A program made the translations under genes and the position numbers. Shown here one piece after another: positions 1-48,796 of a DNA stretch of 64,000 nt (position 1 is its first letter; every line of letters starts with the position of its first letter). The DNA comes from Patescibacteria group bacterium (GTDB lineage Bacteria > Patescibacteriota > Minisyncoccia > UBA6257 > GWB1-50-10): NCBI GenBank assembly GCA_038065455.1, contig JBBTQX010000003.1, positions 24,253 to 88,252 of the forward strand, in the 5' to 3' direction. The notes under the pieces were generated by a model, which saw only the letters and a program-made list of their open reading frames with translations, ran no database searches and was not told the DNA's origin.

Positions 1-1157
1 TTAACGAGCTTATAGAGCCATACTCCGGCCGTTTTCTCCATCCGTTCCTCGTCGGTTCCATCGCCAGCAATTTCTCCATAACCGTCGAACAGGGATTCCT
101 GATTGTTGGTATTGCTTCCATTTTCCTCTTTTTCCTCATCAACGCCTTTCTTCTCAAAAAAGTTCTCCATTCATCCCCGCTCCTTTTTCCTCTCTTCCTC
201 ACGCCTTATTTTTTCAATACCCTGCGGGAGATATTCGAGCCGGACGCTTTTTACATCTTCCTCTCGGCTTTGTTTTTACTTTTTCTGTTTTACAAAATGG
301 AGCGTTCGGGGCTTCTGACTCTTTTTCTGCTTCTGCTTTCGAGGGAAACGACGGCGATTCTGGGCCTAATGTATGCCGGAATGGCCTGGTTTCTGTCGAA
401 GAAAAAATTGCTGGCGATAGCGATTATCGCCGTTATGGGAGTTTCCTTCTATCTTACGGGCATTATGAAGAGTATCGGCCGGCCGAACATCCATAATTTG
501 AGCGGTTCTGCCTATATGGTCTCCAAACTCTCGTACAACTTCCTCACGAACGTGGCGGGCGTGAAGCCCTGGATAAACACGACGAATATTTGCGAGCCGG
601 TTTTCAAAATATCCCTGCCGGCGAATAAATCCCTGGGAAACGTCCGGGAAATCGGTTTCTGCGGCTTTGATTTGTCGTTCCCCTTAAAAGCTCTAATTAC
701 TCTGCTCTCTATTTTCGGGATGGCTCCGCTAATCGTTTTTTACGTATTCCTGAAAAAAAGAAGGGAAATCTTCAAAAATTTTTCTTTCGGCATCCTTCTC
801 GCTTCCGGCTACGGCCTGGCCATTTATATTATCGGCATTTTCGCCGGCACTGGTATCGGAAGAATTGTGGGTTATGCCTGGCCTTTATTCCTGATTGCCG
901 GACCCGTCTGGCTTTCGGCTTTTTTCGAAACCGACCGGAAGTTCATCCTCAAACTTTCTTTGATTCAGCTTTTCACGGTCTGGCTGCCTTTTATTGTTTA
1001 TAAAATAAATGGCGATGCGATGAATTCGCTGATATTCATATTGGCTGTGGTTTTAACAATCTATTTTTACGCTTTCCGAATCATGAAGAATCAAACGATA
1101 AAACCGGAAACAAATCTCAAAGAATTGCCGAATTATGCCTTAAGCGATAGGATATAA
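1..1157 (+). CDS. Polytopic integral membrane protein, 5'-truncated at the window edge. Frame is open from nt 3. Possibly a Wzy-like polymerase or flippase-type protein.
   Basis: No stop codon in frame from nt 3 to 1157. Translation is dominated by hydrophobic helices. It sits at the head of the sugar-modification operon. Confidence 0.45.
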   Translation, partial: NELIEPYSGRFLHPFLVGSIASNFSITVEQGFLIVGIASIFLFFLINAFLLKKVLHSSPLLFPLFLTPYFFNTLREIFEPDAFYIFLSALFLLFLFYKMERSGLLTLFLLLLSRETTAILGLMYAGMAWFLSKKKLLAIAIIAVMGVSFYLTGIMKSIGRPNIHNLSGSAYMVSKLSYNFLTNVAGVKPWINTTNICEPVFKISLPANKSLGNVREIGFCGFDLSFPLKALITLLSIFGMAPLIVFYVFLKKRREIFKNFSFGILLASGYGLAIYIIGIFAGTGIGRIVGYAWPLFLIAGPVWLSAFFETDRKFILKLSLIQLFTVWLPFIVYKINGDAMNSLIFILAVVLTIYFYAFRIMKNQTIKPETNLKELPNYALSDRI

Positions 1158-1163
1158 GCACAA

Positions 1164-3715: not shown

Positions 3716-4957
3716 ATGGAACAAAATTCAACAAGCAGAGTGGTAAAAGAATGCCAAATATGCGGCAGTTCCGATTTAAAATCGGTATTGTTTCTCGGCT
3801 ATCTGCCGCCGGTAAACGATTTTCATCCGATCGGCGAAAGGCCCAAGGAAGAACCGAGTTATCCCGCGGAGATACTTCATTGCGGAAAATGCCATCTCAT
3901 CCAATCCGGCTTTATTGTTGACCCGAAGATTATTTTCCCTCCTTCTTATCCCTACACTTCAAGCACCACCAAGGTATTGAGGGATAATTTCGCGGAGCTC
4001 TATCAAGAATGTTCGTCGATGTTCGAACTTAAGCCGGACGACCTGGTGGTGGACGTGGGCTCAAACGACGGAAATCTTCTGAATAATTTCAAGGGGCACC
4101 ACAAGGTGCTGGGCATCACTCCGGAAGATATCGGAAAGATAGCGATTGAAAACGGCATCCCGACTATTCTCGATTATTTCACGAAAGAAGTGGCTTTGCG
4201 CGTAAAAAAAGAATACGGGCCGGCGAGAATCGTAACCGCTACGAATGTTTTCGCCCATATCGATAACGTAAACGAAGTCGTGGAATCCGTTCTCGAAATG
4301 CTCGCGGAAAAAGGCGTATTTATAATAGAATCGCATTACGTTCTGCCGGTAATCCAAATGAACCAATTCGACACCATTTATCACGAACATCTGCGGCATT
4401 ATTCCATCCACAGCCTGAAATATCTTTTGGAAGCCCACGGCTTTGAAATAATCCATACAAAACCCATTCCGAGCCACGCCGGATCAATCAGGATTTACGC
4501 CGCGAGAAAAGGAGATTATCCGGTAAAAGACACGGTTGCCCAAATGATGGAAACGGAAAAAAACACTATTCTGAAAGACGGAACATTGGCCGAATTCAGA
4601 AAAAAAACCATTATCGCCAAATTGGAACTGATGGCGCTTCTTCGCGACATTAAAAAAAGCGGCGGGCGCATCTACGGCATAGGAGCTCCGTCGCGCGGGA
4701 CTACCCTCATAAATTACACGGGCATCGATGAAGGTATTGTCGACTGCATTCTTGAAATAAAGGGTTCGCATAAAATCGGCAAATACGTTCCGGGAACGCT
4801 TATCCCCGTGCTTGAGGAATCGAAATTATTCGAGGACCAGCCGGAATATGCCCTCTTATTTTCCTGGCAGATTACCGACGAACTGATACCCAAATTGAAA
4901 GAGAAAGGTTTTAAGGGAAAATTCATTATTCCTTTGCCTAGCCCTCATATCGTATAA
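3716..4957 (+). CDS. NDP-hexose C-methyltransferase family protein (TylCIII/NovU-like). Zn-ribbon, then SAM methyltransferase, then C-methyltransferase C-terminal domain.
   Basis: N-terminal CxxC...CxxC motif (CQICGS...CGKC). Central class I methyltransferase fold. Length about 410 aa. A paralog lies at 43920..45155. Confidence 0.6.
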   Translation: MEQNSTSRVVKECQICGSSDLKSVLFLGYLPPVNDFHPIGERPKEEPSYPAEILHCGKCHLIQSGFIVDPKIIFPPSYPYTSSTTKVLRDNFAELYQECSSMFELKPDDLVVDVGSNDGNLLNNFKGHHKVLGITPEDIGKIAIENGIPTILDYFTKEVALRVKKEYGPARIVTATNVFAHIDNVNEVVESVLEMLAEKGVFIIESHYVLPVIQMNQFDTIYHEHLRHYSIHSLKYLLEAHGFEIIHTKPIPSHAGSIRIYAARKGDYPVKDTVAQMMETEKNTILKDGTLAEFRKKTIIAKLELMALLRDIKKSGGRIYGIGAPSRGTTLINYTGIDEGIVDCILEIKGSHKIGKYVPGTLIPVLEESKLFEDQPEYALLFSWQITDELIPKLKEKGFKGKFIIPLPSPHIV

Positions 4958-5405: not shown

Positions 5406-6638
5406 TCAAAAAGCCGCGATTTTTTCAATTTCTCGGGCTGCAAGGGCGGCGTTCAGATTCTTTTCGGCGAAGAGCCGGCCGTTTTCGCCCAGCTTCGCAA
5501 TACTTTTCCTGTCCCGATACATCTTTCTCGCCAATTCCTCGGCTTTGCCGATATCGGTTGAACCGGCGACGAAGCCGCACTTCGCTTCTTCAATAAGCGT
5601 GGAGCGGAGACTTTCCTTATTCACAAAAGCGAGCACAGGAACGCCGGCCGCCATATAGGCCGGAATCTTGGCCGGAAAAATCGGCGTCGTATTGCGCGAA
5701 GTCAGAGACACCAATCCGACATCGGCATCTTTCAAAAGAAATGGGAATTTCTCTTTCAAAACCAGGGGTTTGAAAATCACGTTTCCCAGATTTTTTTCTT
5801 TCGCGATTTTCATAAGTTTTTCTTTTTCCGTCCCGTCGCCGACGAAAAGAAAAACCGCATCCGGCAAATCTTTTACTCGCTCGGCGACTTGAAGCACAAA
5901 TTCCAAGCTTTGCGACGGTCCCAGAATGCCGCCGAAAAAGAAGATGAGTTTGTCTTTCGAAATGCCGAATTTTTCCCTGAAACGGTTTGTCCGCTTCGCC
6001 TCTTCGAATTGGCGCATATCCACCCAATGAGGCACCGAACTCACCTTCTCCGACGGAACGCCGCGCATCCGTTCCAAAAATTCCTTATGCCCAATCGAAG
6101 GAACGATAATCACATCGGCTTCCCGGTAAACATACGATTCCATTTTTTCGAAAAACCATTTTAAAACGGCGGCCGAAAAAGGCAGAAAAGGAACCTTGAG
6201 AATGCCGAGATCCACCGCATTCTGCGGAAAGATATCATGGACATTCAAAACAAAGCGCGCCTTGAAACGGCGCTTCAACGCCACGGCGGCGAGTGCTAAA
6301 GGAAGCGGCGGGGTATGGATAAATATCGCGTCCGTCGGTCCCGCCAAGCGCTTTGCGGCCCGGAAGAACGTAATAGGCATAAAAAGCTGGGAGAAGCCCC
6401 TAAAAATGAAGTTTACTTTGTGATGAGGCAGGGTCTTTATGCGGATAACCCGGATACCGGCTTCGTTCTCGACTTCCGAAAGCGACACGTTCCCATCCGC
6501 CAGATTATAGGCCGGATAGGAAGCGAGAACGGTAATTTCGTGGCCGAGCTTTTTCAAATTCTCTGCAAGTTCGGCCATTAAATGGGATGCCGAGCGCACT
6601 TCCGGCGGGTAAGAGTCGGTAATGACAAGAATCCTCAT
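5406..6638 (-). CDS. Family 4 glycosyltransferase (glycosyl transferase group 1).
   Basis: MRILVITDSYPPE N-terminus. GT-B architecture with C-terminal E-x7-E region. Confidence 0.7.
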   Translation of the reverse strand: MRILVITDSYPPEVRSASHLMAELAENLKKLGHEITVLASYPAYNLADGNVSLSEVENEAGIRVIRIKTLPHHKVNFIFRGFSQLFMPITFFRAAKRLAGPTDAIFIHTPPLPLALAAVALKRRFKARFVLNVHDIFPQNAVDLGILKVPFLPFSAAVLKWFFEKMESYVYREADVIIVPSIGHKEFLERMRGVPSEKVSSVPHWVDMRQFEEAKRTNRFREKFGISKDKLIFFFGGILGPSQSLEFVLQVAERVKDLPDAVFLFVGDGTEKEKLMKIAKEKNLGNVIFKPLVLKEKFPFLLKDADVGLVSLTSRNTTPIFPAKIPAYMAAGVPVLAFVNKESLRSTLIEEAKCGFVAGSTDIGKAEELARKMYRDRKSIAKLGENGRLFAEKNLNAALAAREIEKIAAF

Positions 6639-8429: not shown

Positions 8430-9605
8430 CTAAAAGAAATTGTTAAGCGCTTCCGTTATTTTTTCCGCGGCGAAGCCGTCGCCGAAGGCGCCGTGTTTTT
8501 TGGCCATGGACGCGTAATGCGCCGGCTCGTCCAATAGCCAGAAAGTTTCACGGATAATGGCGCTTTTTTCGGCGCCGACAAGCATGGCGTTTCCGGCCGC
8601 GACGGCCTCGGGCCGCTCCGTCGTTTTGCGGAGCACCAGAATCGGCTTACCCATCAAAGAAACTTCCTCCTGAATGCCGCCCGAGTCCGATAGGATAATA
8701 TGTGCCTTGCCCATTAAAAAGAGAAATGGTTTGTAATCCAGCGGTTCGGTAAGCAGAATACCCGGCGCGCCGCGGAGCATCTTGAAAACCGTTTCCCGGA
8801 CATTCGGATTGGGATGCACCGGATAAACAAACAGGATATCCGGCCTCTTTTTTGAAATTTCAATAAGCGCTTCACAAATGTTTTTAAGCCCCTCCTCGAA
8901 ATTCTCCCGCCGATGGGCGGTGACGAGGATTATTTTCTTTTCCCCGGAAAATTCCATTCCGTATTTTTCGTTGAAATAATTTTCCCACTTCGCGCCGAAA
9001 TCTTTTCCGGCGGAAACGAGGCGCACGGCGTCCAGCGCCGTATTTCCCGTGACGAATATCCAGCTCTCCGGAATGTTTTCTTTCAGAAGATTTTTCTTGG
9101 CATCTTCGGTCGAAGCGAAATGAATATCGACCAAAGGCGCGATAAGCCGGCGATGCGCTTCTTCGGGAAAAGGATCGGACTTATTCCAAGTGCGCAGGCC
9201 AGCCTCAACATGAGCGATTCTGATTTTGAGATAGAACCCTATAAGCGCGGCGAGAAAAGCGGTAAAGGTATCACCCTGAACCGCGAGAAGATCGGGCTTT
9301 TCTTTTTTTATTATCCTCACGAAAGACAAAAGCCCCCAGGCGCTTTTTACCCCGCTCCAGCCTTTCCTAAAAATCCCCGCTCCGAAAAATTCCCGGTCAT
9401 TCAGGGATATTTTTAAATCAAAATCCGGCTTCAAACCGAAGGCAGAGAGCGCCTGGTCCAGCATCGCGCCATGCTGGCGGAAGACACAAGCGAGTACCCT
9501 GAATTTTCCGGAAGCTCGGAGCGAAAGGATGATCGGCGCAAGTTTGATTGCTTCGGGTCGGGTGCCGAAAACCACGAGAACCGTTTTTAATTTCGACCCT
9601 GTCAT
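8430..9605 (-). CDS. wecB: UDP-N-acetylglucosamine 2-epimerase, non-hydrolysing.
   Basis: VLVVFGTRPEAIKLAPI N-terminus. Conserved His/Glu epimerase_2 family motifs. 391 aa. Confidence 0.8.
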   Translation of the reverse strand: MTGSKLKTVLVVFGTRPEAIKLAPIILSLRASGKFRVLACVFRQHGAMLDQALSAFGLKPDFDLKISLNDREFFGAGIFRKGWSGVKSAWGLLSFVRIIKKEKPDLLAVQGDTFTAFLAALIGFYLKIRIAHVEAGLRTWNKSDPFPEEAHRRLIAPLVDIHFASTEDAKKNLLKENIPESWIFVTGNTALDAVRLVSAGKDFGAKWENYFNEKYGMEFSGEKKIILVTAHRRENFEEGLKNICEALIEISKKRPDILFVYPVHPNPNVRETVFKMLRGAPGILLTEPLDYKPFLFLMGKAHIILSDSGGIQEEVSLMGKPILVLRKTTERPEAVAAGNAMLVGAEKSAIIRETFWLLDEPAHYASMAKKHGAFGDGFAAEKITEALNNFF

Positions 9606-16603: not shown

Positions 16604-16813
16604 TCAGAAAATAGTGTAGATGAACGGCCCGAGAGGCGAACTCTGCGCGAAGATTATAATAAGGAAAAAGACGACAATAAGCGCAACCATGGGAATCAGC
16701 CACCACATCTTGTTCTGCCAAAGAAATTGGAAAAGCCGGCCCACAATCCCGAAACGGATGGAAATCGTCCGCCGGATACCCGATAACTTTTCAGAGATAT
16801 TCATGATTTCCAT
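16604..16813 (-). CDS. Small membrane protein of the DUF5989/SxtK-like type.
   Basis: 69 aa. Has the WWLIPMVALIVVFF helix and a C-terminal SPLGPFIYTIF signature. Confidence 0.5.
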   Translation of the reverse strand: MEIMNISEKLSGIRRTISIRFGIVGRLFQFLWQNKMWWLIPMVALIVVFFLIIIFAQSSPLGPFIYTIF

Positions 16814-18671: not shown

Positions 18672-18713
18672 ATGTAAAATGTATACATCAACTTTTCCAT
18701 CCGGTCAAATACC

Positions 18714-18741
18714 TTGAAAAAATAATTAAAAGGCTTACAAT
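18714..18741 (+). promoter_or_regulatory. Candidate sigma70-type promoter TTGAAA-16-TACAAT, about 10 nt upstream of the ATG at 18752 (near-leaderless).
   Basis: Hexamers read from the sequence in the divergent intergenic region. Confidence 0.4.
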
Positions 18742-18751
18742 CAAAAATAAT

Positions 18752-19708: not shown

Positions 19709-19715
19709 CCGTTCA

Positions 19716-39356: not shown

Positions 39357-39602
39357 CTAGTTAATTGGCACAAGAGATAACGACTTTTTAAGATAGTATC
39401 TAGGGTTTTCAAACAATTTTTGGTATGGGAGCTTCATGCTCTTGAGCCAGGTGTGGGAGAGAAGGGAAAAGCGGATCCGACAACTGCGGCAATGATATCT
39501 TCCTTGTCTGGCGACGACCTTTCTCGTACTCCAACCCCGATATTTGACCAGACGAACCGCTTCCATCCGGAGCTTGGGCATATGATGATTCTTTGTATAC
39601 AT
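39357..39602 (-). mobile_element. Remnant of an IS1595-family transposase. Only the N-terminal zinc-ribbon part is present; there is no DDE domain.
   Basis: 81-aa ORF with YHCRSCRIRFS...KLPYQKLF, resembling the IS1595/ISXO2 N-terminal Zn-ribbon region. Truncated. Confidence 0.35.
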
Positions 39603-39748: not shown

Positions 39749-40410
39749 GTGTCATATTCATATGTATACGCTTCAGAAGAAAAATTGTTCGAGATCATCG
39801 CTCGTATTTTGTGCGATAATAGAAATAGACTCAAAAAACCCGTTGATTCTGTCTGTTTCTTCGGACAGACAACCGAGAATGACATGCCGATGATTAGAAG
39901 TGCGGCAAACATTCAAATGGGTGGTCTGGCTCGCCTCGTAGCCATAACAGGATTCGCCGGCGAGAAAAACGGCAGTTTTGAAGTACGTGGTTCCAAGTCT
40001 TTCGCGAACGAAATTATGAAACTCGGAGTTGCTTCAAAGAACATAGTTTCTTTTCCGCTCTCAAAAAATTCCCGCCTTGCACCGATGCCGAAGCAATTGG
40101 GGTCGTTGAGTTTGCGAAATCCCAGGGATGGAAATCCCTCATCGTGACGGTTCCTCCGCTTCACCAGGCCCGGGCTTTCATTTCGACTGTGAGCGCGGCA
40201 ATCAAATACTATCCGGAACTCAAGGTCTACAGTATACCGTCTGAGGCACTTCCTTGGACCGAGGAAGTGATTCACTCTCAGAGCGCACCCCGTGCGAAAC
40301 GGAGTGAACAGTTCGGCGGAGAATTGGCGAAACTCGCCAAATACTCCGGAAAAGGCGATCATGTGTCGCCCGACGAAATCCTCGCCTATCTCAACCGGCG
40401 AGATCAATGA
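39749..40410 (+). pseudogene. Frameshifted paralog of the DUF218-like gene. It is split into ORFs 39749..40147 and 40144..40410 by a -1 change in an A6 homopolymer at 40063..40068.
   Basis: Both halves align to 38198..38872 (PPLHQARAF, HSQSAPRAKRSE vs HSQGILKGTRSE). Restoring a seventh A gives a continuous LSKKFPP reading. GTG start with an AAGGAGG SD. Confidence 0.55.
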
Positions 40411-40483
40411 TAACTATTCGGTAAAAACCGAAATCCCGCAAGATATTTTTGCGGGATTTTTATTTTCCGCTGAAAATTCTTAC

Positions 40484-41080
40484 TTACCCGCGTTCGGCCA
40501 GATGATCGAAGTAGTCCACGAAGTAGCGAGTAATCATGTGCAAAATAACGCCGTGAACGCTCTCCACCGCCTCATACTCCCCCGGAGGAGTTTTGACCAA
40601 TATTTTAGCGGTCGCCAATTCATTCAATTTTCCGCCATCAAAACCCGAAAGGCCGATGATAGGAACTTTGTATTCTTTGGCGACTTCAACCGCTTTTATT
40701 ATATTCGGCGATTTTCCGGAACTGGAAATGGCGATAATGGCATCGGTGTCCTGGATATAATTTTTAAGAGGGCCAGCGAAAACCATATCATAGCCCACGT
40801 CGTTCGCCCAAGCGGTCAGCTCCGATTCGGTGGTGGGAAGCCGTATGGCTTGGAAACGGCGGGCATGCATATCGAGATGATGGCTGAAAACCGTTTTGTT
40901 GAAGTCGCTTACCCAGTGGGTAGCGAGAGCCAAAGAACCCCCATTCCCGAAGATATATATTCTTCCGTCGCGTTCATAGGTCGCCTGAAGGATATCAATC
41001 GCCTTCGCAATTTCTTCGTGGGGCAAGTTGCGGATAAGAGCAATGACCTTTTCCGAAAAATCTTTTATGTATTTTTCCAT
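40484..41080 (-). CDS. gmhA: Phosphoheptose isomerase (sedoheptulose-7-phosphate isomerase, SIS domain).
   Basis: RIYIFGNGGSLALATHWVSDF SIS motif. 198 aa. Confidence 0.75.
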   Translation of the reverse strand: MEKYIKDFSEKVIALIRNLPHEEIAKAIDILQATYERDGRIYIFGNGGSLALATHWVSDFNKTVFSHHLDMHARRFQAIRLPTTESELTAWANDVGYDMVFAGPLKNYIQDTDAIIAISSSGKSPNIIKAVEVAKEYKVPIIGLSGFDGGKLNELATAKILVKTPPGEYEAVESVHGVILHMITRYFVDYFDHLAERG

Positions 41081-41090: not shown

Positions 41091-42116
41091 TTATACCTCT
41101 CTTACCTTAAAAGTATTGTCGTTGTTCATTAAAATTTCCCCGCCCGATTGGACAAAACTGAAGGGAATTTCGTTGAAATCCTGCAATTGATGGGTATTCG
41201 CCGATTTTTGCATTGCTTGGCGGATGGCCGGCTTCTTATCAAGCGGTGCGATAAACAAAACGCAGCCGCCTCCGCCCGCGCCCAGAATTTTCCCGCCCCA
41301 AGCACCGGCATTCAATCCCGCCGTATAAAGACTATCTATAATCGGATTAGAAACATTGGAAGCCAGTGTCTTTTTGAGCATCCAGCCCTCGTGAAGCATT
41401 CTTCCCAATCCTTCAAAATCCCCCGCTATGAGCTTGTCCCGGAATTCAAATACCGAATCGGACATCTTTTTTAAAACCTCGAATTTGTTTTCCGTATTCG
41501 CGCGCTGTTCCGTAAGCACGGATGAAGCATCGCGGGCAATGCCGGTGTAAAAAAGCATAAGATGGTCCTGAAACGCCGCTTTTTGCTTGAAATCCAACCG
41601 AACCGGAGAAACGTCTACCGAATGGTCCTGGTTGAACTGAAAAATATTCAACCCCCCGAAAGCGGAGGCATACTGGTCCTGTTTGCCGATCGGCTCTTTG
41701 ACCAGGTCAATTTCCAGATGCGATGCCAACTCGGCTATTTCTCCCCGCCCCATCTTCTTTCCCTGTGAAAGCGAAAGAGCCTTCATAAGCGCCACCGAAA
41801 AACTGGAAGAAGAACCCAAACCCGTCTTTACCGGCACGTCGGAAAACGTGGCCACATCAATGTTGTTATGGATGCCGAAATGAAGAAGCGCTTCGCGAAC
41901 CCGGTTATGCTTAAGTTCTTTCGGATGATTCACCAATTCGGATGTGACATACCGTACGGAAACCGTTTTAACGAGCGGCGGCCGGTTTATGGTCGCGTAG
42001 GCATATTTATCTATGGCAACGGAAATAACGCGGCCGGGATAACGCGTATAAAACTCTTTGAAGTCGGTGCCGCCCCCGACGAAACTTATCCGCATAGGCG
42101 CTCTCGCGATTATCAT
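41091..42116 (-). CDS. GHMP kinase, D-glycero-alpha-D-manno-heptose 7-phosphate kinase (HddA-like).
   Basis: MIIARAPMRISFVGGGTDF N-terminus. GLGSSSSFSVALMKAL GHMP motif. 341 aa. Confidence 0.65.
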   Translation of the reverse strand: MIIARAPMRISFVGGGTDFKEFYTRYPGRVISVAIDKYAYATINRPPLVKTVSVRYVTSELVNHPKELKHNRVREALLHFGIHNNIDVATFSDVPVKTGLGSSSSFSVALMKALSLSQGKKMGRGEIAELASHLEIDLVKEPIGKQDQYASAFGGLNIFQFNQDHSVDVSPVRLDFKQKAAFQDHLMLFYTGIARDASSVLTEQRANTENKFEVLKKMSDSVFEFRDKLIAGDFEGLGRMLHEGWMLKKTLASNVSNPIIDSLYTAGLNAGAWGGKILGAGGGGCVLFIAPLDKKPAIRQAMQKSANTHQLQDFNEIPFSFVQSGGEILMNNDNTFKVREV

Positions 42117-42160: not shown

Positions 42161-43345
42161 TCAAGCCGTTATTTTTTTTATCAGCCGGTCGCAAGCTTTT
42201 TCCACCTCGTCCACGGTGATAAGCTCCATGCTTTTATGGACGCATTCCTTTTTCCGATAATCACATTCCAGAAAACGGTGCTGGATAACCTCGTGCCCGG
42301 CGCCGTAAGGAAACCAAAGCCCCGGAATATTCATCGTGGAAAAAAGGGAAACGGTCGGTTTTCCGAACGACGCCATAATATGCATCGGTCCGCTGTCGAT
42401 ACCGAGAAGAAAAGAACAATGCCTGATGAGAGCGGCGGATTCTATCACCATCAGTTTTCCGGCGGTTATCAGAATTTTGTCGGCCTTAAGGTTCCGGGCA
42501 ATCAATTCCGCTTCTTTAACATCTCCCGGGCCGCCGATGATTACGATGCGGGCATTATATTTATCGATTAAATATTCCAAAACCTCCGCGAATCTCTCGG
42601 GTAGCCAGCGTTTCTCCGGAAAATTGGCCTTGGTTGCGAATTGGAGAGCAATAAGGAGTTTCGGCGGCTCGGCGCCCCATTTTGTGGCGAGAATTTCTTT
42701 GACTTTCGCTTCGGCTTCAACCGGAATGGGCAAATCGAATTCCGCATCTCCGACTTTTACGCCCGCTTCCTTCAAAATATCAAGAAGAGTATCCGTTTCC
42801 TGGCGGGCCAGAGTCCAGTCAATCTGCGTTTTTTTGAATAAATTTATAATGACCCGGACCCGAAAACCGAAGGCCGATTTCACTCCCAGAAGGCGGGCAA
42901 AGACCATATTGCGAAAGAGAACCCGAAAACGAGCCCAGGAATCCGCCGGCAAGTTTATGAATATATCGTAATGTTCTTTTCTTAAGCCGCGGACTAGCCG
43001 CAAAATGCTTCCCCAGGAATCAAAATCGTTCACGTCGTATTTGATTATCCGGTCCAGATACCAGGCGCCATGGAGAAGCTCCGAAGCTCCCGGAATGCCT
43101 TTGACGCCCGGCGAAGTAAGAAGGGTGATTTCCGCTTCCGGGTAATTCTTCCGAATGGCGATAAACGACGGAATGGCGCAGATTATATCGCCGATATTTC
43201 CCACTTTGAAAACGAGTATCTTTTTCGGAGATTCGACTCTCCGAAAGAAAAAAACCGCTTCGCAAACCCTTAACGCGAGATTAAGGGAATTTTTGGACAG
43301 CCGGACGATTCCAAGTTCTATTTTCTGTTTGAAACCCGGTTCCAT
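42161..43345 (-). CDS. Family 9 glycosyltransferase (heptosyltransferase-like).
   Basis: KILVFKVGNIGDIICAIP N-terminal motif typical of GT9. C-terminal GIDSGPMHIMAS region. Confidence 0.7.
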   Translation of the reverse strand: MEPGFKQKIELGIVRLSKNSLNLALRVCEAVFFFRRVESPKKILVFKVGNIGDIICAIPSFIAIRKNYPEAEITLLTSPGVKGIPGASELLHGAWYLDRIIKYDVNDFDSWGSILRLVRGLRKEHYDIFINLPADSWARFRVLFRNMVFARLLGVKSAFGFRVRVIINLFKKTQIDWTLARQETDTLLDILKEAGVKVGDAEFDLPIPVEAEAKVKEILATKWGAEPPKLLIALQFATKANFPEKRWLPERFAEVLEYLIDKYNARIVIIGGPGDVKEAELIARNLKADKILITAGKLMVIESAALIRHCSFLLGIDSGPMHIMASFGKPTVSLFSTMNIPGLWFPYGAGHEVIQHRFLECDYRKKECVHKSMELITVDEVEKACDRLIKKITA

Positions 43346-43349
43346 TGGA

Positions 43350-43916
43350 TTAATCCGCCTCCAATCCTCCGGAAAGCTTCAGAAATTCTTTGAAGCTTTT
43401 TCCTTTCAAATCCCTCTCCGACAGTTCGCTGGGATTTTTAACGGGCCAGCCGATATTCAGGTCCGAATCGTTCCATAAAATCGCGTCTTGGGATTCCGGA
43501 TGATAATAATTGTCCATTTTATAAAGAAGGGTGCAGTCGTCGGAGAGAGTACAGAGGCCGTTCGCGAATCCCCGCGGCGTGTAAACCATATTCTTTTTTA
43601 GGGAGGAAAGCTCAATAGAGTCCCATTGTCCCAGAGTCGGCGAACCTTTCCTCAAATCAACCCAAACCAGAAACGCCTCGCCCGAAGAAACCCGCATAAG
43701 CTTGCCTTCCGAATGCGGCGGATATTGGAAATGCAGTCCGCGAACAACCCCTTTCTTTTTTGAAAATGATTCGTTCTCCTGCACCCACTCGCGCGCGATT
43801 CCCCGCTCTCCAAATACATTTTTATCGTAAGTCCGGACAAAAAATCCCCGCGCATCTTCATGGGGCTCGAGCGTTATTTCGAAAACGCCCTTCAATTTTC
43901 TTTCCTTGATAACCAT
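43350..43916 (-). CDS. RmlC-like cupin sugar-nucleotide 3,5-epimerase.
   Basis: VRGLHFQYPPHSEGKLMRVSSGEAFLVWVDLRKGSPTLGQW matches the RmlC core. Confidence 0.7.
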   Translation of the reverse strand: MVIKERKLKGVFEITLEPHEDARGFFVRTYDKNVFGERGIAREWVQENESFSKKKGVVRGLHFQYPPHSEGKLMRVSSGEAFLVWVDLRKGSPTLGQWDSIELSSLKKNMVYTPRGFANGLCTLSDDCTLLYKMDNYYHPESQDAILWNDSDLNIGWPVKNPSELSERDLKGKSFKEFLKLSGGLEAD

Positions 43917-43919: not shown

Positions 43920-45155
43920 TTACGTTTTGATGATGCGCGGATCGTTCGGCAAGGGCACGATGTAAGTCCCCTTGAAACCGAAATCTTTCTCCAAATAATT
44001 CCTGATCTCTTCCTCGAAATTCCAGGCCAGAATGAAAACATGAGTGGGTTTTCGGGCCATTACCGCCTCCGGCTTCTCTATCGGAATGCGGGAACCGGCG
44101 GTATATCTTCCCTGTTTCAGGGGATTTTTATCGGCGATAACCGGCAGACGGCTCCTGTTTATGCCGCAGAAATTCAAAAGAGCCGAGCTCCGGGCCGAGG
44201 CGCCGTAGCCGACAACGAGTCCGTTCGGATCGGACTTTTTGGCCTCATCCAGCATTTCATTCAGCTTATCCCGATGGGAAATGGAACGGGCGGCGAATCC
44301 CTGCCAGGAAGCAAAGGAATTCAATCCGATTTTTTCTTCGTTGTCCCTATAGCTTTTAAGCAGAGCGCTTTCCTCGCCGCGGCTCTTTTTCGCGTAAACT
44401 ACCATCGAGCCGCCGCTGATGGGACTCGCCATAATATCGAAGACGAAAAGTCCGGAATCGTTAAGGAGCTTTTCCAGACTCTTGAGGGTGAAATAGCACA
44501 AATGCTCGTGGTAAATCGAGTCGTAATGGAGCCCTTCCAGGATTATCTTCGCATAGTGGGCTTCTATCGCAAGCGTTCCGTCGTCGCTCAACGCGCGAGC
44601 CAGCCCTTTTACAAAATCGACGGTGTTCGCCACGTGCGGCAAAACATTGCGGGCGAATATCGCCTTTGCCTTTCCCCGCTCCGAAACTAATTTTTCGGCT
44701 TCGGCTTCGCTCCAAAAAGCGCAAAGGGTCGGAGCGCCGGCCTTCTCCGCCATCTCCGCAATATTTTTGGCCGGATCAACGCCCAAAACCTTATACCCTT
44801 TTTCAATAAACGGGAATAGGAAAGTTCCGTCGTTCGAGGCAACTTCAAGAACATATCCGTCTTCTTTCGGCACGCGCGCGATAAGTTCATCGGCGAAAGT
44901 TTGAGAATATTTTTGCGCCACGCCCGAAGTGCCAGTCACCCAGACATATTCGTCGAAAAGAATCTTCGGGTCCGCCGTATAATCCAGCTGGACCAGGTTG
45001 CAATCGGCGCACCAGCTCAAGGAGAGCGGGTAATAATTTTCTTTTTCGTCGGGGCCGGCAGGCAGAGAATTAGCCAGCGGCTGAGAACCCAAATCGAAGA
45101 ACGGCTTCAGATTAGGGCTGTTGCAAACTCGACAATGGTCGATTAATCCCATCAT
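43920..45155 (-). CDS. NDP-hexose C-methyltransferase family protein (paralog of 3716..4957).
   Basis: CRVCNS...CADCNL Zn ribbon followed by a methyltransferase fold. 411 aa. Confidence 0.6.
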   Translation of the reverse strand: MMGLIDHCRVCNSPNLKPFFDLGSQPLANSLPAGPDEKENYYPLSLSWCADCNLVQLDYTADPKILFDEYVWVTGTSGVAQKYSQTFADELIARVPKEDGYVLEVASNDGTFLFPFIEKGYKVLGVDPAKNIAEMAEKAGAPTLCAFWSEAEAEKLVSERGKAKAIFARNVLPHVANTVDFVKGLARALSDDGTLAIEAHYAKIILEGLHYDSIYHEHLCYFTLKSLEKLLNDSGLFVFDIMASPISGGSMVVYAKKSRGEESALLKSYRDNEEKIGLNSFASWQGFAARSISHRDKLNEMLDEAKKSDPNGLVVGYGASARSSALLNFCGINRSRLPVIADKNPLKQGRYTAGSRIPIEKPEAVMARKPTHVFILAWNFEEEIRNYLEKDFGFKGTYIVPLPNDPRIIKT

Positions 45156-45182
45156 TGGATTAAATTTAGCAATAAAATGCGC

Positions 45183-45959
45183 TTACGGCAACTTGCGGAC
45201 AATAAGATGGCCGGTCTTCACGAAGAAACTTTTGAAAAGTCCGGGATAATTCAGAACTTCGCAGCGATGCGCCATAAACCAAAGAACGGCCGCGTGCGGG
45301 TCAATGGAATTGCAGGCGTCTGAATCGGCATCCCAAAACTTCTCGTAGTTCGCCTTCAATTTCCTGTAGTCGAGTTTTTCTTGGGATTTTTTATTGAGAA
45401 TGAATTTAACCGTCCGCCAAATTCTTTTGGGAACGATGAAAAGCAGGCGGAAAAGCAAATTATCCCGCCATAGAATGGAAAATTTTATGAGTTTGCCCCA
45501 AAGACCGAAATCGCAGTAGGGCCGAACCGAGTAGTTCTCCGCCGCCCACGGCCTCACCTGCCAAGCCGGTTTAAAAAGAAATATGCCGCCATTTTTCAAA
45601 ACGCGGAGCGATTCGTTTAGCGCCCGGTCAATTTCGGGAATATGCTCAAAAACGGAAATGCTGAGGATGACATCGAAAGTTTCGTCCTTAAACGGATAAC
45701 TCTCCCCCTCTTTATCGACAAAGAATGGTTTGTGGTAAAACTTCCTCAAATTCTCCGCTACATCGAAACCGGTATAATCCCGGACGATATCCTGAAACTG
45801 GCCGGCGGCGCTGCCGATCTCCAAAACTTTTTTGTCTCCGAGATTAAAATCGGTTACGAATTTTTTGAGTTCCGGGTAGAAATTATGCTCCTCCGGACGC
45901 GCGGCGGGATTGGTCGCTTTGGAATGGTATTCCTTGCTGTAAAATTCCTTAAATTCCAT
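45183..45959 (-). CDS. Class I SAM-dependent methyltransferase.
   Basis: VLEIGSAAGQF motif I. Confidence 0.55.
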   Translation of the reverse strand: MEFKEFYSKEYHSKATNPAARPEEHNFYPELKKFVTDFNLGDKKVLEIGSAAGQFQDIVRDYTGFDVAENLRKFYHKPFFVDKEGESYPFKDETFDVILSISVFEHIPEIDRALNESLRVLKNGGIFLFKPAWQVRPWAAENYSVRPYCDFGLWGKLIKFSILWRDNLLFRLLFIVPKRIWRTVKFILNKKSQEKLDYRKLKANYEKFWDADSDACNSIDPHAAVLWFMAHRCEVLNYPGLFKSFFVKTGHLIVRKLP

Positions 45960-46902
45960 GACTCTCTCGATACCAGGCCACGAGTTTCTTTACGCCGTCG
46001 GCATATTTGGTTTTCGGCTCCCAACCCAAAAGCCTTTTGGCCTTCTCAATATCGGCAAGGGTCTGGTCAACATCGCCGGGCGGCATAGGCATCTCGTTGA
46101 TTATCGCTTTCTTTCCGACCGCCTCTTCCAAAGTTGCAATCATCTGGTTCAAAGTGATGGCATCCGAACCGCCAAGATTGATTATTTCAAAACCGAAGCT
46201 CTTGTCCAAACAGGCCATGATTCCTTCAACGATATCGTCAACATACGTGTAGTCGCGCCTGGAACTTCCGTCTCCGTATTTTTTTATCGGCCGGCCGTTC
46301 ACAATATCGTTCACCATCGTAAAGTGGGCCATATCCGGCCGGTTATTGGGACCGTAGACCGAAAAAAACCTCAAACAAACCATATTGAGGTTATAAAGAT
46401 AATGGTAGTTAAAACAAAAGAGCTCGTTGGCTTTTTTGGTCGCGGCGTAAGGGCTGATCGGATAGTCAACATTATCCGTCTCGGAGAACGGAACTTTTTT
46501 GTTGTTTCCATAAACCGAGGAAGATGAAGCAAAGATGAAATTTTTCACCTTATAGCGCCTGCAGACCTCCAAAAGATGGAGGGTCCCGACTATGTTATTG
46601 ACGGTAAAACCTTCCGGATCGTCCAGAGAAGCGCGCACGCCGGCTTTGGCGGCGAGATGGATGACCGCGTCAATATGATTCTCGATAAAAACCTTCTCCA
46701 GAGCGTTGTGATTCACGATATCTTCAATGACGCAGGTAAAATTCGGATTATTCTGGAACGGAGTGATGTTCTGTTTTTTGATATCCGGCGAATAGTAGCT
46801 GTTAAAATTATCCAAGCAGATGACCTGATGGTTTTCCTTGAGCAAGCGTACGCAGAGATTGGAACCGATGAATCCGGCTCCGCCGGTAACGAGTATCTTC
46901 AT
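45949..46902 (-). CDS. NAD-dependent epimerase/dehydratase (UDP-glucuronate decarboxylase / 4-epimerase-like).
   Basis: MKILVTGGAGFIGSNLCVRLL. YxxxK present. Confidence 0.65.
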   Translation of the reverse strand: MKILVTGGAGFIGSNLCVRLLKENHQVICLDNFNSYYSPDIKKQNITPFQNNPNFTCVIEDIVNHNALEKVFIENHIDAVIHLAAKAGVRASLDDPEGFTVNNIVGTLHLLEVCRRYKVKNFIFASSSSVYGNNKKVPFSETDNVDYPISPYAATKKANELFCFNYHYLYNLNMVCLRFFSVYGPNNRPDMAHFTMVNDIVNGRPIKKYGDGSSRRDYTYVDDIVEGIMACLDKSFGFEIINLGGSDAITLNQMIATLEEAVGKKAIINEMPMPPGDVDQTLADIEKAKRLLGWEPKTKYADGVKKLVAWYRESHGI

Positions 46903-47465
46903 TTGCTTAAGATATCTTTTATCTTTTGGTCGTCGGGCCAGTATTTCAAAATAGTGTTCGCGATTTCTTTTAATTTTTCTCCTTCCCCTTTCGCCTGGTA
47001 GAGATCTAAAAGACTGTAAAGCACCGGCGGGAGCTTGGGGCCGATCGCGAGCGCCGCCCGATAAGCTTCTTCGGATTTAACAAAGTCTTCCTCCTGACGA
47101 TACTTCTGCCACAAAAGACTGTAAAGATTTCCGCGAATTATGAGATGCCGCACATCGTTTTTGAAAAGATACGGTTCAATAAAAGAAACCAGCTCCCGGG
47201 AAAGAGCTTCGGGATTATTCTGCGAAACCAGGCTTGTTATGGTATCGCTGCTGAAAAATTTCACGATTTCCTCCTGGCCGATCGGAGAATAGAACGAAAG
47301 CGCTCGGCCGAAAACATCCTTGAACTCCGGAAGCGTTTTTATCGAATTGAGCATATTGATAGCCCTCACGTAAGAACGCGATTTTTCGAACGGAAGATAG
47401 GAACCGAAAATAATAGCGAGAACCGCAAGAAGAATTCCGAAAAATATGAATATTTTCTTAATCAT
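46899..47465 (-). CDS. Membrane-anchored protein with TPR-like helical repeats. Function unknown.
   Basis: N-terminal TM helix. Helical repeat composition. Confidence 0.3.
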   Translation of the reverse strand: MIKKIFIFFGILLAVLAIIFGSYLPFEKSRSYVRAINMLNSIKTLPEFKDVFGRALSFYSPIGQEEIVKFFSSDTITSLVSQNNPEALSRELVSFIEPYLFKNDVRHLIIRGNLYSLLWQKYRQEEDFVKSEEAYRAALAIGPKLPPVLYSLLDLYQAKGEGEKLKEIANTILKYWPDDQKIKDILSK

Positions 47466-48796
47466 GGCTGTTTTGCCGCCGGCCGGCCGAATAGGTATGC
47501 CGCAAAAGCGAGAAAAGTGAAAACGTTGATATAAATAACGAGAACATCGAAAAGCACAATGCCCTGAATAAGGTAAGCGAGCGAAAGACCGAAGAGAAGC
47601 GCTTTAACAAAGGGGGATATGTTTCCCGATGATATCTCAGCCGAACGGAACAGTTGGCGGAAAAAAACGGCGAAAATTCCCAAAAACGAAAGAAGCCCGA
47701 GGAGACCGGTCTCCACCAGATAATCGAAATAAATACTGTGGGCCCGATCGAACCACGCCCCGAATCCCTCGCTTGGACGGAAATAATTCGTATTGAAGTG
47801 GCGGTCAAACACCTGAATGAAATTTTCCGGACCCCAGCCCAAAATCGGCCGTTCTTTGAATCCGTCCAAAGCGATTTTCCACATAATCGCCCTATCCTCG
47901 AAAGTTCTCGCCGAAAAAGAAATATTGAAAATCCGCGACCCCGGAATGGACTTGACGAAAGATGTGTCTTTGAAATAAACCAAAGAACCCACCAGAATCA
48001 CCAAGACGAAACCGATAATGAAAAGCCATTTGCGCATGGATGGGCGGGTATAGATAAAGTAAAAAAGACCGGCGATTACCGCCACGACCAAGCCCATAAA
48101 AGCGCCGCGGGTTCCGGCGGCGAAAAACATCGCGGCGAAAGCGGTTCCGATAAGGTAAAGCGCGAAAGCTTTCGCCGATTTCAGACGATCGGGATACAAA
48201 TCATGGAGAAGATATAAGACGTAGAAAATCATAAAAATCGAGAAAGCGGCAAGATAAGCCGGATTTCCGATGGAGCCGGAAAAACGGAAACCCGAATTGC
48301 CGAAGAGCTGACCGATGAATTTTGAAACACCTAAAGCGGCCAAAAAGCCGTAAATCCCCGAAAGAACTCCGCCTCCGATTGCCCAACCGAAAAGCCGGCG
48401 CCAATCGCGCTCTTCGTCAAAAAGCGCGACCAAAAGGACGAAAAATGCCCAAAGATGGAGCATCTGTAAGCCTCCCTCGCCACGTTCGAAATTGGACCAG
48501 AAAGAATTGGAAGGATTGATTCCGAAAAAACCGGCCAAGAGAAAGAATGTCGCGAAAACGGAAACCGCTATCACAAGCGGTTTGCGGAATATAGCCAATA
48601 ATTTTCGGCTCATAACCGAGGATTTGTCCTGAAAAAGAAGCCCGAGCAGGAAAAATATCACTGCTAAATCAACCGTTGTCCGAAACCAGGAATATTTGCC
48701 GACAATAAACGGAAAAAGCGTGGATATGGAAACAATCGCCACGGCAAGAACCGATAATTTGAGAAAATTCTTGGAAGTCTTGAAATAATCGAACAT
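47462..48796 (-). CDS. O-antigen ligase/polymerase-like (Wzy/WaaL superfamily) polytopic membrane protein.
   Basis: About 12 TM helices with a large periplasmic-type loop. Last gene of the glycan operon. Confidence 0.4.
   Translation of the reverse strand: MFDYFKTSKNFLKLSVLAVAIVSISTLFPFIVGKYSWFRTTVDLAVIFFLLGLLFQDKSSVMSRKLLAIFRKPLVIAVSVFATFFLLAGFFGINPSNSFWSNFERGEGGLQMLHLWAFFVLLVALFDEERDWRRLFGWAIGGGVLSGIYGFLAALGVSKFIGQLFGNSGFRFSGSIGNPAYLAAFSIFMIFYVLYLLHDLYPDRLKSAKAFALYLIGTAFAAMFFAAGTRGAFMGLVVAVIAGLFYFIYTRPSMRKWLFIIGFVLVILVGSLVYFKDTSFVKSIPGSRIFNISFSARTFEDRAIMWKIALDGFKERPILGWGPENFIQVFDRHFNTNYFRPSEGFGAWFDRAHSIYFDYLVETGLLGLLSFLGIFAVFFRQLFRSAEISSGNISPFVKALLFGLSLAYLIQGIVLFDVLVIYINVFTFLAFAAYLFGRPAAKQP

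Follow-up and report, generated by a model that had tools for sequence, protein, structure and literature searches.

The 64,000-nucleotide stretch of Patescibacteria DNA analyzed here (GenBank assembly GCA_038065455.1, contig JBBTQX010000003.1, positions 24,253 to 88,252; referred to throughout as the window) carries a surface-glycan locus of approximately 56 kb and approximately 50 genes, which runs from position -7254 to position 48796 of the window and is cut by the window edge; the original prediction, made from the sequence alone, had proposed a large surface-glycan supercluster, and this was borne out. Our preferred reading, for which we see an even balance of probability, is that this is a Wzx-type surface-glycan locus of a member of the candidate phyla radiation (CPR), that it includes a heptose-branching cassette, and that a Wzy_C protein and its partner glycosylate the adjacent surface protein. 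A more far-reaching proposal, which we hold tentatively and consider less probable, is that the locus encodes an undescribed pathway from GDP-heptose to a C-methylated, two-carbon-branched, O-methylated 6-deoxy-heptose (C10-class), that the cassette for this sugar has spread by transfer among CPR, Thaumarchaeota, and marine and groundwater microbes, and that in Paceibacteria the sugar is shown on a glycosylated surface layer (S-layer) by a CPR-wide Wzy_C-tetratricopeptide repeat (TPR) O-oligosaccharyltransferase, which would be the first defined CPR protein-glycosylation system.

Approximately 56 genes were defined from the table of open reading frames (ORFs) and scanned against Pfam and NCBIfam, and selected proteins were searched against the Protein Data Bank (PDB); this profiling of each ORF with hidden Markov models found nearly every family named in the original prediction at its expected place. 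What we computed were gene families, synteny, gene fusion, protein fold, and co-occurrence of the cassette genes; the substrates, the order of steps, the acceptor, and the structure of the glycan are inferred from these. In the mechanism that we propose, a WbaP/EpsB-type phosphoglycosyl transferase would start a polyprenyl-diphosphate-linked oligosaccharide, and nine cytoplasmic glycosyltransferases of families GT2, GT4, and GT9 would extend the chain from donors made in the locus (an N-acetylmannosamine [ManNAc]/uronic-acid branch, an amino sugar, and a heptose-derived sugar). The chain would be decorated with methyl and carbamoyl groups and probably with O-acyl groups, Wzx-type flippases would export the unit, and a 431-aa polytopic protein may polymerize it; Wzy_C and its TPR-like partner would then attach the glycan to an extracytoplasmic acceptor, most likely Ser, Thr, or Tyr residues of a 1135-aa surface protein.

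A conserved candidate ligase and partner beside a surface-protein gene

The Wzy_C protein (Table 1) is probably the O-oligosaccharyltransferase of the locus. The original prediction had proposed that such an enzyme be sought elsewhere in the genome; the candidate proved to be the last gene of the interval it covered. A PDB search with the single protein sequence gave nothing useful, and NCBIfam returned weak matches to a polymerase family (TIGR04370) and to IctB. A profile built from 30 homologues matched the O-antigen ligase WaaL (7tpg) at 3e-8, with the arginine of the TRGA motif and the histidine of the catalytic region aligned. The AlphaFold2 (AF2) model (pLDDT 87, pTM 0.90) has the WaaL fold with 12 transmembrane (TM) segments, and in a Foldseek search with this model WaaL was the top match and the only significant structural one (1.8e-6). 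R230, R288, R302, and H353 are invariant in the alignment. Homologues form more than 120 clusters at >50% identity, all of them from Patescibacteria, and the protein is far better conserved than the sugar genes that follow it, which differ between genomes; this contrast argues against a repeat-unit polymerase.

The 188-aa single-TM protein encoded next to Wzy_C is 45 to 46% identical to the C-terminal domain of Wzy_C fusion proteins of 645 to 647 aa (P0148 and P0174), and several Wzy_C homologues of 640 to 661 aa carry a C-terminal TPR_19 domain (PF14559, annotated in P0148 and P0176). The two genes therefore correspond to one protein that is split here. The partner is syntenic in at least seven relatives.

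The 1135-aa protein consists of a signal peptide, a short coiled coil, a PG_binding_1 domain, and then approximately 975 aa of all-beta tandem Ig-like domains; Ser and Thr make up 26.5% of its residues, and it has almost no Cys. Its 308 homologues are confined to Patescibacteria. It is, in our reading, the strongest candidate for the glycan acceptor and for the S-layer protein or main wall protein. A PDB sequence search with it gave nothing useful, and a specific S-layer fold was considered and rejected, as Foldseek gave generic multi-Ig arrays. Across the family, whose members are 1,100 to 1,200 aa long, the N-terminal anchor is mostly PG_binding_1, sometimes SLH (PF00395; P0339 and P0341), and in some members no recognized domain.

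When ClpB-anchored loci were compared by tblastn and blastp, the 1135-aa protein was syntenic in at least nine relatives, and the pair of Wzy_C and its partner lay beside it in at least eight genomes. The order in relatives is MgtC, class-V aminotransferase, SIMPL, HtrA, ClpB, a surface protein of 1,100 to 1,170 aa, one or two Wzy_C genes, and a homologue of the 188-aa protein. The run from ClpB through the surface protein, Wzy_C, and TPR partner into variable sugar genes is present in L005 to L008, L011, and L049 and partially in L009, L010, and L013, and the sugar genes after the partner vary by genome (AsnB, GT9, C-methyltransferase, GT2, SDR [short-chain dehydrogenase/reductase], and DegT). 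The analogy with S-layer glycans drawn in the original prediction, with the adjacent proteins as targets, is strengthened by this synteny and by the match to WsaA/WsaB and WsfB, which is described below. In four of these loci, a second, long Wzy_C paralogue (750 to 836 aa, approximately 28% identity) separates the surface-protein gene from the conserved Wzy_C gene (L005:17610-20120, L007:15744-18008, L049:17394-19784, and L010:7900-10194); the window is without it and has two small secreted proteins in its place.

These two proteins, of 313 and 339 aa, are not conserved in relatives. The 339-aa protein has no homologue in the related loci and contains an internal duplication of approximately 98 aa, with approximately 80 aa in near-identical copies (residues ~52 to 131 and 149 to 228) of a beta-helix-like unit, GTG..T..N. 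We considered whether the GT9 enzyme of the locus could be an AAH/TibC-type protein heptosyltransferase acting on this Thr/Gly-rich protein; the PDB search gave no TibC, and the idea is unsupported. Three signal-peptide proteins thus occupy positions 48900 to 54604, two of them with PG_binding_1. The original prediction had placed the locus directly upstream of three wall-anchored proteins; the proteins are there, but as every gene from 54604 to 40484 is encoded by the minus strand, it is the surface-protein genes that are transcriptionally upstream, not downstream, of the glycan genes. The 1135-aa gene is flanked by GC-rich terminator-like hairpins (51137-51154 and 54864-54885, minus strand), and a TG-extended -10 promoter-like site lies at 55036-55009 (minus strand), approximately 400 nt upstream of its start; these elements suggest that the gene is transcribed on its own and has a long leader.

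It is possible, but in our view doubtful, that the product of the locus is instead a wall polysaccharide or a capsule linked to peptidoglycan or lipid (of the secondary cell-wall polymer, teichuronic-acid, or exopolysaccharide [EPS] type), with Wzy_C as a polymerase or non-protein ligase and the surface proteins binding the polymer. WecB and NDP-ManNAc-type dehydrogenases are usual in the synthesis of wall polymers and teichuronic acids, and both are encoded in the locus; its phosphoglycosyl transferase is nearest to EPS/XrtA-type families, Wzy_C has its weak polymerase and IctB matches, and the exchange of PG_binding_1 for SLH among homologues shows the surface protein docking to wall components. 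However, Wzy polymerases usually vary with the glycan, whereas this one is >50% identical across more than 120 CPR clusters, and its fused or adjacent TPR-like domain parallels known protein O-oligosaccharyltransferases. In addition, the 431-aa protein is a separate polytopic Wzy candidate, and there is no LCP-family ligase in the 64 kb of the window and the 8.8 kb of flank examined with it.

Extent and layout of the locus

The flank is known from a 65-kb contig from Hainich groundwater (L084), on which the locus extends approximately 7.3 kb beyond the window start; five further glycan genes lie there (Table 1), and a DsbA-like gene forms the upstream border. PF01943, PF13440, and PF03023 were found on both flippase genes, whose NCBIfam flippase matches are under the cut-offs. 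The best families of the single phosphoglycosyl transferase seen in the locus are of the EPS/XrtA type. With flippases and a phosphoglycosyl transferase upstream, the locus thus has the components of polyprenol-linked assembly with Wzx export. Pfam and NCBIfam scans of the 64 kb + 8.8 kb revealed neither an ABC exporter nor Wzz nor an LCP ligase, and domain scans found no Wzz/PCP domain in the window or L084.

The gene of the 431-aa candidate polymerase begins approximately 138 nt before the window. Approximately six TM segments were predicted within the window part (run on ORF 270-1157, 295 aa), and the protein has no Pfam match; as a Wzy_C relative it was rejected, with an hhalign probability of 0.3% (none detected). 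Another polytopic protein, TM519, belongs to an uncharacterized family of 322 cluster representatives, none of them named, in which Asp52 and Arg168-Pro169 are near-invariant. It has no Pfam match and no PDB match, and a relationship to Wzy_C was again rejected (hhalign probability 1.9%, none detected); that 1 of 36 members matches GT87 weakly is a weak hint of a GT-C fold. In the related loci L096 and L097, the 431-aa gene comes directly after TM519, and the block of approximately 22 kb that lies between them here (4998-27654) is missing; it is therefore a lineage-specific addition.

At least four transcription blocks can be made out, which meet in both convergent and divergent orientation, and a terminator-like hairpin ends the unit that runs from Wzy_C to gmhA (Table 1). 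This layout bears on a further reading, namely, that two or more independent glycan pathways stand side by side (for instance, a protein O-glycan and a polysaccharide), with no single combined oligosaccharide. The two Wzx-type flippases, the three unrelated polytopic candidates (the 431-aa protein, TM519, and Wzy_C), the transcription blocks with their terminator, and the block missing from the otherwise syntenic L096 and L097 would all fit such an arrangement. We nevertheless think it unlikely, as only one phosphoglycosyl transferase was seen and as the gap at 37.7 to 40.5 kb separates the heptose gene hddC-gmhB from the heptose genes gmhA and hddA, which makes the two halves dependent on each other. 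Scans of the window for tRNAs, Rfam families, and tandem repeats found nothing.

The heptose, C-methyltransferase, and E1 cassette

The GDP-heptose pathway that had been predicted as complete stands as far as the families go: all four are the best matches of their genes, but the scores are under the NCBIfam equivalog cut-offs. The best matches of the GmhA-like protein are all phosphoheptose isomerases (100.9 bits; cut-off, 276), and that of the kinase is HddA (8e-47, 160 bits; cut-off, 600), followed by fucokinase at 7e-29. The HddC-GmhB fusion scores 171.6 bits as GmhB (cut-off, 178), 97.6 bits as HddC (cut-off, 300), and 113 bits as mannose-1-phosphate guanylyltransferase. Going by these families, the product of GmhA, HddA, and HddC-GmhB would be GDP-D-glycero-alpha-D-manno-heptose. 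The GT9 enzyme, the RmlC-like epimerase, and the RmlD-like reductase were confirmed by Pfam and NCBIfam, the last of these as a domain fused to a GFO/IDH/MocA oxidoreductase; the closest PDB matches of the GT9 protein are a Veillonella GT9 (3tov, 1e-20) and then lipopolysaccharide (LPS) heptosyltransferases.

Neither the two TylCIII-type sugar C-methyltransferases nor the E1 alpha/beta pair dependent on thiamine pyrophosphate (TPP) had to be reassigned. Both C-methyltransferases have the zinc ribbon PF08421 (5.8e-21 and 1.5e-14; CxxC at residues 13/56 in the first and 8/49 in the second) and PF08484 (Methyltransf_14; 5e-41 and 2.7e-38), and the second aligns over its full length (residues 5 to 404) with mycarose 3-C-methyltransferase (4rv9, 1.5e-57) and matches TcaB9 at 7e-51. 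The E1 alpha protein matches pyruvate dehydrogenase (PDH) E1 alpha in the PDB at 5e-20, and the beta gene is adjacent to it.

These genes recur together. The E1 alpha family comprises proteins of approximately 308 aa in more than 120 clusters at E<1e-99, with names that include Paceibacterota, Thermodesulfobacteriota, Nitrosopumilales, Nitrosotalea, and Thaumarchaeota. In six of six E1 alpha homologue contexts, SIS, GHMP-kinase, RmlC-like, and SDR genes were present, with NTP-transferase and/or HAD genes in most, one or two C-methyltransferases in four, and a CmcI methyltransferase in two; one of the six is a 1.2-Mb Thaumarchaeota contig. A profile-based metagenome scan then gave 80 loci, and counts were taken from the 14 with full flanks of ±10 kb: E1 beta was found in 14 (adjacent), HddC/GmhB, RmlC, and C-methyltransferase in 13 each, GmhA in 12, and HddA and CmcI in 11 each. 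The corresponding figures for non-cassette genes were 1/14 for GT9 and 0/14 for Wzy_C, carbamoyltransferase, WecB, and sugar dehydrogenase. The triad of SDR, E1 alpha, and E1 beta is kept in L090, L094, and L095, and L096 and L097 are collinear with the window from 27.6 to 45.2 kb. Metagenomic contigs that carry the cassette number in the hundreds and come from both Bacteria and Archaea. Recurrence of the heptose genes, C-methyltransferase, RmlC, E1 pair, and CmcI as one cassette implies a single heptose-derived branched sugar; most likely, one nucleotide sugar is the product of the cassette. The original prediction had listed heptose, C-methyl, C-branch, and carbamoyl decorations separately; its families were correct, but the first three belong to this one cassette and are not independent. 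In three of the six contexts (L091, L092, and L096), a DUF6016 gene (PF19480, ~165 aa) is directly beside E1 alpha; it is missing from the window.

Nucleotide sugars with a 4-keto group are the substrates of C-methyltransferases as well as of RmlC-type epimerases. In the pathway that we envisage, GDP-D-glycero-alpha-D-manno-heptose would be oxidized or dehydrated to a 4-keto (6-deoxy) intermediate, which would be C-methylated and epimerized; the E1 pair, with TPP, would add a two-carbon branch from pyruvate, and the branched sugar would then be reduced and O-methylated. PDH-like alpha/beta pairs without E2 and E3 are a known route to two-carbon sugar branches, namely, AviB1/AviB2 in avilamycin and Pau11/Pau12 in paulomycin (PMC4425429), and Pfam scans of the window detected neither an E2 nor an E3 gene (no domain of the lipoyl, 2-oxoacid_dh, or E3 type). 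Our literature search found no description of a pathway that combines heptose, a C-methyltransferase, and an E1 pair.

It is improbable that the E1 pair is instead a transketolase-like enzyme supplying sedoheptulose-7-phosphate to GmhA, or a 2-oxoacid decarboxylase making an acyl substituent, in which case the cassette would yield a (C-methyl) heptose without a branch. A precursor-supply enzyme would equally be expected to co-occur with GmhA and HddA, and the pair does have weak similarity to transketolase and split transketolase (NCBIfam, 4e-11; PDB 6yak, 1.6e-4), but the similarity of E1 alpha to PDH E1 alpha is far stronger (TIGR03182, 138 bits versus 42 bits for transketolase). Moreover, the pair is equally tied to the C-methyltransferase and RmlC, whose substrates are 4-keto nucleotide sugars; an SDR gene is immediately before it in L090, L094, L095, and the window; and AviB1/B2 and Pau11/12 provide a precedent for branching.

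The cassette is interrupted by a gap at 37.7 to 40.5 kb, which holds an 89-aa ORF that is possibly a SemiSWEET sugar transporter, by its sequence, and a gene for a 224-aa protein with a frameshifted paralogue, the two convergent and approximately 1 kb apart. We considered whether the gap is a foreign insertion and rejected this, because the 224-aa gene is at the same place in L097 and L121, between GmhA and an SDR; at least that gene therefore belongs to the cassette neighborhood. Its homologues there are on the strand opposite to the cassette, and in the window it is on the same (minus) strand. A putative IS1595-like transposase remnant at 39357-39602 was likewise rejected (no Pfam match at E≤1).

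Host of the locus

Exact copies of the ClpB and the 602-aa fusion protein of the window are present on Hainich groundwater contigs from the 0.1- and 0.2-µm fractions. At NCBI, a protein identical to the 1135-aa surface protein is recorded from a genome labeled "Patescibacteria group bacterium." The 49 nearest genomes by ClpB are 62 to 77% identical, and those named are all Patescibacteria, including "Candidatus Jorgensenbacteria," Paceibacterota, Wolfebacteria, and Liptonbacteria; judged by these sequences, the host is a Patescibacteria (Paceibacteria-type) bacterium of Hainich groundwater. Cryo-electron microscopy of groundwater CPR cells showed an S-layer, with reported lattice spacings of 3.8 and 10 nm, and no outer membrane (bioRxiv 10.1101/2020.05.14.094862). 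The case that the original prediction had itself set against its proposal, an ordinary LPS O-antigen cluster of a diderm, is very improbable: although Wzy_C is automatically named "O-antigen ligase" and GT9 enzymes are best known from the LPS core, the locus is not LPS because the host belongs to the Patescibacteria, there is no lipid A, Kdo, Lpt, or core gene in the 64 kb + 8.8 kb, the imaged cells are without an outer membrane, and the genes for activating heptose are of the GHMP-kinase/NTP-transferase kind (GDP, alpha) rather than HldE.

Weighing of the preferred reading

Several points count against the reading of the locus as one for glycosylation of the surface protein with a branched heptose. 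The glycan and the glycoprotein are predicted from genes, and the Wzy_C family spans polymerases, lipid and LPS ligases, and O-oligosaccharyltransferases, which sequence cannot separate. The fold of the 1135-aa protein matches generic multi-Ig proteins, the Deinococcus HPI S-layer protein being only at rank 39. Two flippases and several polytopic proteins could mean two separate glycans, and WecB with the ManNAc-type dehydrogenase also fits a wall polysaccharide, as set out above. Within the cassette, the heptose enzymes are best matches with scores under the equivalog cut-offs, and none of the seven SDR domains reaches an NCBIfam equivalog cut-off, so no specific reaction is assignable to them. 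The likeness to AviB1/AviB2 is one of family and context. Finally, the known TylC3-type methyltransferases use dTDP-sugars, and we know of no characterized GDP-heptose C-methyltransferase.

Other genes of the locus

The DegT aminotransferase, the NodU-type carbamoyltransferase family, the two SGNH proteins, WecB, the nucleotide-sugar dehydrogenase, and the nine glycosyltransferases of the window (four GT2, four GT4, and one GT9) were all supported as predicted. For the carbamoyltransferase, this means membership in the NodU/CmcH/TobZ family only (NodU equivalog, 141 bits; cut-off, 1000). Two claims did not hold. Of the approximately eight O/N-methyltransferases expected, six ordinary ones were found, and the number reaches eight only if both C-methyltransferases are counted. 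The gene called an FdtA-like ketoisomerase encodes a small cupin, for which PF05523 gave E=0.01 (16 bits; cut-off, 23), the WxcM-like 4zu4 gave E=0.012, and oxalate-decarboxylase cupins gave 6e-6; its homologues in L096 and L097 are 75 to 88% identical. On two contigs from Hainich well H52 (L087:9935-10375 and L089:9533-9973), the cupin is called as 146 aa versus 130 aa here, with a longer spacer to the next gene, and both contigs also encode an identical copy of the 602-aa fusion, which indicates strain-level variation inside the locus. The fusion is found in L096 as well.

The 439-aa protein has no useful PDB sequence match. Two minus-strand ORFs, 18668-19093 and 19205-19741, were rejected as spurious, the plus-strand SDR gene between the same positions being the real one. 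Outside the locus, a 276-aa ORF at 55102-55932 (minus strand, TTG start, approximately nine hydrophobic segments, no Pfam match) overlaps the 3' end of clpB; in at least eight related CPR genomes, the corresponding position encodes a protein 31 to 42% identical to it. Gene callers differ over the region: they place a gene of 138 aa on the other strand or one of 214 aa on the strand of the ORF.

Table 1. Genes and other features of the surface-glycan locus and the adjacent surface-protein genes, with window coordinates unless a contig is given
Feature	Position	Strand	Evidence or remark
Wzx-like flippase, 511 aa	L084, outside window		PF01943/PF13440/PF03023-type domains; upstream gene 1
Bac_transf phosphoglycosyl transferase	L084:3144-4457		PF02397; TIGR03025 323.8 bits (cut-off 295.6); upstream gene 2
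Second Wzx-like flippase, 486 aa	L084		Polysacc_synt/MurJ-type domains; upstream gene 3
AsnB-type amidotransferase, then DUF4916 gene	L084		Upstream genes 4 and 5
431-aa polytopic membrane protein (C-terminal 384 aa), candidate Wzy-type polymerase	1-1157 (window 3-1157)	+	Identical to L084:8699-9994
GFO/IDH/MocA sugar oxidoreductase fused to RmlD-like SDR reductase domain, 602 aa	1164-2972	+	
GT2, 248 aa	2965-3711	+	
Sugar C-methyltransferase no. 1	3716-4957	+	Zn ribbon, S-adenosylmethionine (SAM) domain, Methyltransf_14; CxxC at residues 13, 56
Small cupin, 130 aa	4998-5390	-	Best PDB matches oxalate-decarboxylase cupins
GT4	5406-6638	-	
GFO-like, 541 aa	6639-8264	-	
WecB	8430-9605	-	TIGR00236 388 bits, over cut-off
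GT2	9602-10390	-	
GT4	10513-11694	-	
GT2	11695-12615	-	
FkbM methyltransferase	12596-13450	-	
DegT aminotransferase	13434-14555	-	
Carbamoyltransferase	14578-16359	-	Carbam_trans_N 1.3e-72, Carbam_trans_C 9.8e-71
SGNH/AlgX-like	16813-18009	-	
Methyltransferase	18018-18671	-	
SDR	18752-19708	+	
GT4	19716-20897	-	
SGNH/AlgX-like	20898-21965	-	
439-aa cytoplasmic protein, possibly beta-propeller	21966-23285	-	Faint PD40 signal, E=0.012; between GT4 and SGNH-like genes
GT4	23269-24474	-	
Methyltransferase	24471-25388	-	
SDR	25425-26423	-	
NDP-sugar dehydrogenase	26432-27676	-	TIGR03026, over cut-off
TM519, polytopic membrane protein	27654-29213 (probable ATG start 29150)	-	At least 9 TM segments
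Class I methyltransferase	29147-29959	-	
GT2	29969-31066	-	Syntenic after CmcI in L096/L097
CmcI/rhamnosyl-O-methyltransferase-family methyltransferase	31070-31885	-	PF04989 1.4e-84; cassette member
TPP-dependent E1 beta-like	31810-32763	-	PF02780 2.9e-6; NCBIfam PDH E1 beta 4.4e-12
TPP-dependent E1 alpha	32750-33658	-	PF00676 8.8e-36; GDG...NN TPP motif, residues 142-172
SDR	33655-34536	-	
SDR	34533-35435	-	
HddC-GmhB fusion, 402 aa	35432-36640	-	NTP-transferase + GmhB-type HAD phosphatase
SDR	36628-37662	-	
SemiSWEET-like ORF, 89 aa	37804-38073	+	3 TM, PQ motif; MtN3/SWEET PF03083 E=3.6e-4, under cut-off
224-aa protein	38198-38872	-	No Pfam match
Frameshifted paralogue of 224-aa gene	39749-40410 (ORFs 39749-40147 and 40144-40410)	+	tblastn 50% identity over 114 aa
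Terminator-like hairpin	40431-40459	-	11- to 14-bp stem, then T run
GmhA-like SIS isomerase	40484-41080	-	PF13580 9.7e-18
HddA-like GHMP kinase	41091-42116	-	GHMP N and C domains
GT9, heptosyltransferase family	42161-43345	-	Outside cassette
RmlC-type 3,5-epimerase	43350-43916	-	Over TIGR01221 cut-off
Sugar C-methyltransferase no. 2	43920-45155	-	Methyltransf_13/14 family
Class I methyltransferase	45183-45959	-	
Extended SDR, dehydratase/epimerase type, candidate NDP-sugar 4,6-dehydratase	45949-46902	-	GalE 3.7e-60, dTDP-glucose dehydratase 1.2e-57, both under cut-offs
188-aa single-TM TPR-like partner	46899-47465	-	TPR_19 E=0.004 (weak)
Wzy_C/WaaL-fold ligase, candidate O-oligosaccharyltransferase	47462-48796	-	PF04932 1.6e-20
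313-aa secreted protein	within 48900-50958	-	PG_binding_1, Gly13 tract, C-terminal coiled coil
339-aa secreted protein	49939-50958	-	20% Thr, 17% Gly; no family match
1135-aa wall-anchored multi-Ig-like surface protein, candidate S-layer protein and glycan acceptor	51197-54604	-	

Significance and comparison with known systems

CPR genomes are approximately 1 Mb in size and have very little biosynthetic capacity. A freshwater survey counted approximately 15 CAZy genes per CPR genome (PMC9166423). Approximately 56 kb and nine to ten glycosyltransferases devoted to one surface glycan would make the cell surface a main investment of these episymbionts, and such a glycan would likely serve in attachment to the host, in escape from phages, or in both. 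Together, the conserved surface protein, Wzy_C, and its TPR partner offer testable candidates for the S-layer protein and glycosylation enzyme of Paceibacteria; in the literature that we searched, no paper identified CPR S-layer proteins, their glycosylation, or a CPR O-antigen ligase. The cassette suggests an unrecognized family of branched higher-carbon sugars and would offer new thiamine diphosphate carboligases and C-methyltransferases for glycoengineering. The interest of the locus thus lies in its host lineage, in the scale of the investment, and in two testable hypotheses, CPR S-layer glycosylation and a branched heptose pathway.

By analogy, the locus is organized like a Gram-positive S-layer glycosylation (slg) locus and is not a new category of system. 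WsaB and WsfB are the Wzy_C proteins of S-layer protein O-glycosylation, and WsfB and PglL have a C-terminal TPR; in Geobacillus stearothermophilus, wsaA is a separate 168-aa TPR gene beside wsaB, and in Paenibacillus alvei, wsfA encodes an asparagine-synthase homologue (PMC2943079). As in the slg loci of G. stearothermophilus NRS 2004/3a and P. alvei CCM 2051T, a surface-protein gene is beside the glycan genes, the Wzy_C transferase has a separate (wsaA-like) or fused (WsfB-like) TPR module, and WbaP-type initiation, an asparagine-synthase homologue, and a monoderm-type envelope are shared (PMC2943079). The locus differs in its CPR host, in a PG_binding_1 anchor (SLH only in some homologues), in Wzx export where G. 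stearothermophilus has an ABC transporter, in being approximately three to four times larger (approximately 50 genes), and in its heptose/E1/C-methyl cassette and carbamoylation; glycosylation is here deduced from genes.

The heptose genes are of the same families (SIS isomerase, GHMP kinase, HAD phosphatase, and NTP transferase) as the GDP-heptose pathway of Aneurinibacillus thermoaerophilus. In Campylobacter jejuni, 6-deoxy-heptose formation for the capsule uses an RmlC-like epimerase and an SDR dehydratase/reductase, and the locus has candidates for both. Unlike in these two organisms, HddC and GmhB are fused, and the scores are under equivalog cut-offs; to our knowledge, a C-methyltransferase, a TPP-dependent E1 pair, and a CmcI methyltransferase are part of no described heptose pathway. 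Like AviB1/AviB2 and Pau11/Pau12, the E1 pair stands alone among sugar genes, with approximately 300 to 345 aa per subunit, a TPP motif, and no E2 or E3 (PMC4425429); those pairs, however, belong to actinomycete antibiotic pathways and act on a hexose or pentose, whereas this one is heptose linked, in a surface-glycan locus, and distributed over CPR, Thaumarchaeota, and marine metagenomes. YerE, of yersiniose synthesis, is a single-chain flavoenzyme of another TPP family and is unlike the pair.

The C-methyltransferases share with TylC3, TcaB9, and mycarose 3-C-methyltransferase full-length homology, the four-Cys zinc ribbon, the SAM domain, and Methyltransf_14; they differ in that two paralogues are in one locus and in that their substrate, judging from the cassette, is likely a GDP-linked heptose derivative rather than a dTDP-2,6-dideoxyhexose. 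Wzy_C, in turn, resembles WaaL (7tpg) and PglL/PilO in its 12-TM WaaL fold and the conserved Arg/Arg/His set of the Wzy_C region; unlike them, it has no possible LPS core acceptor here, is paired with a TM-anchored TPR-like partner, and belongs to a family conserved across CPR.

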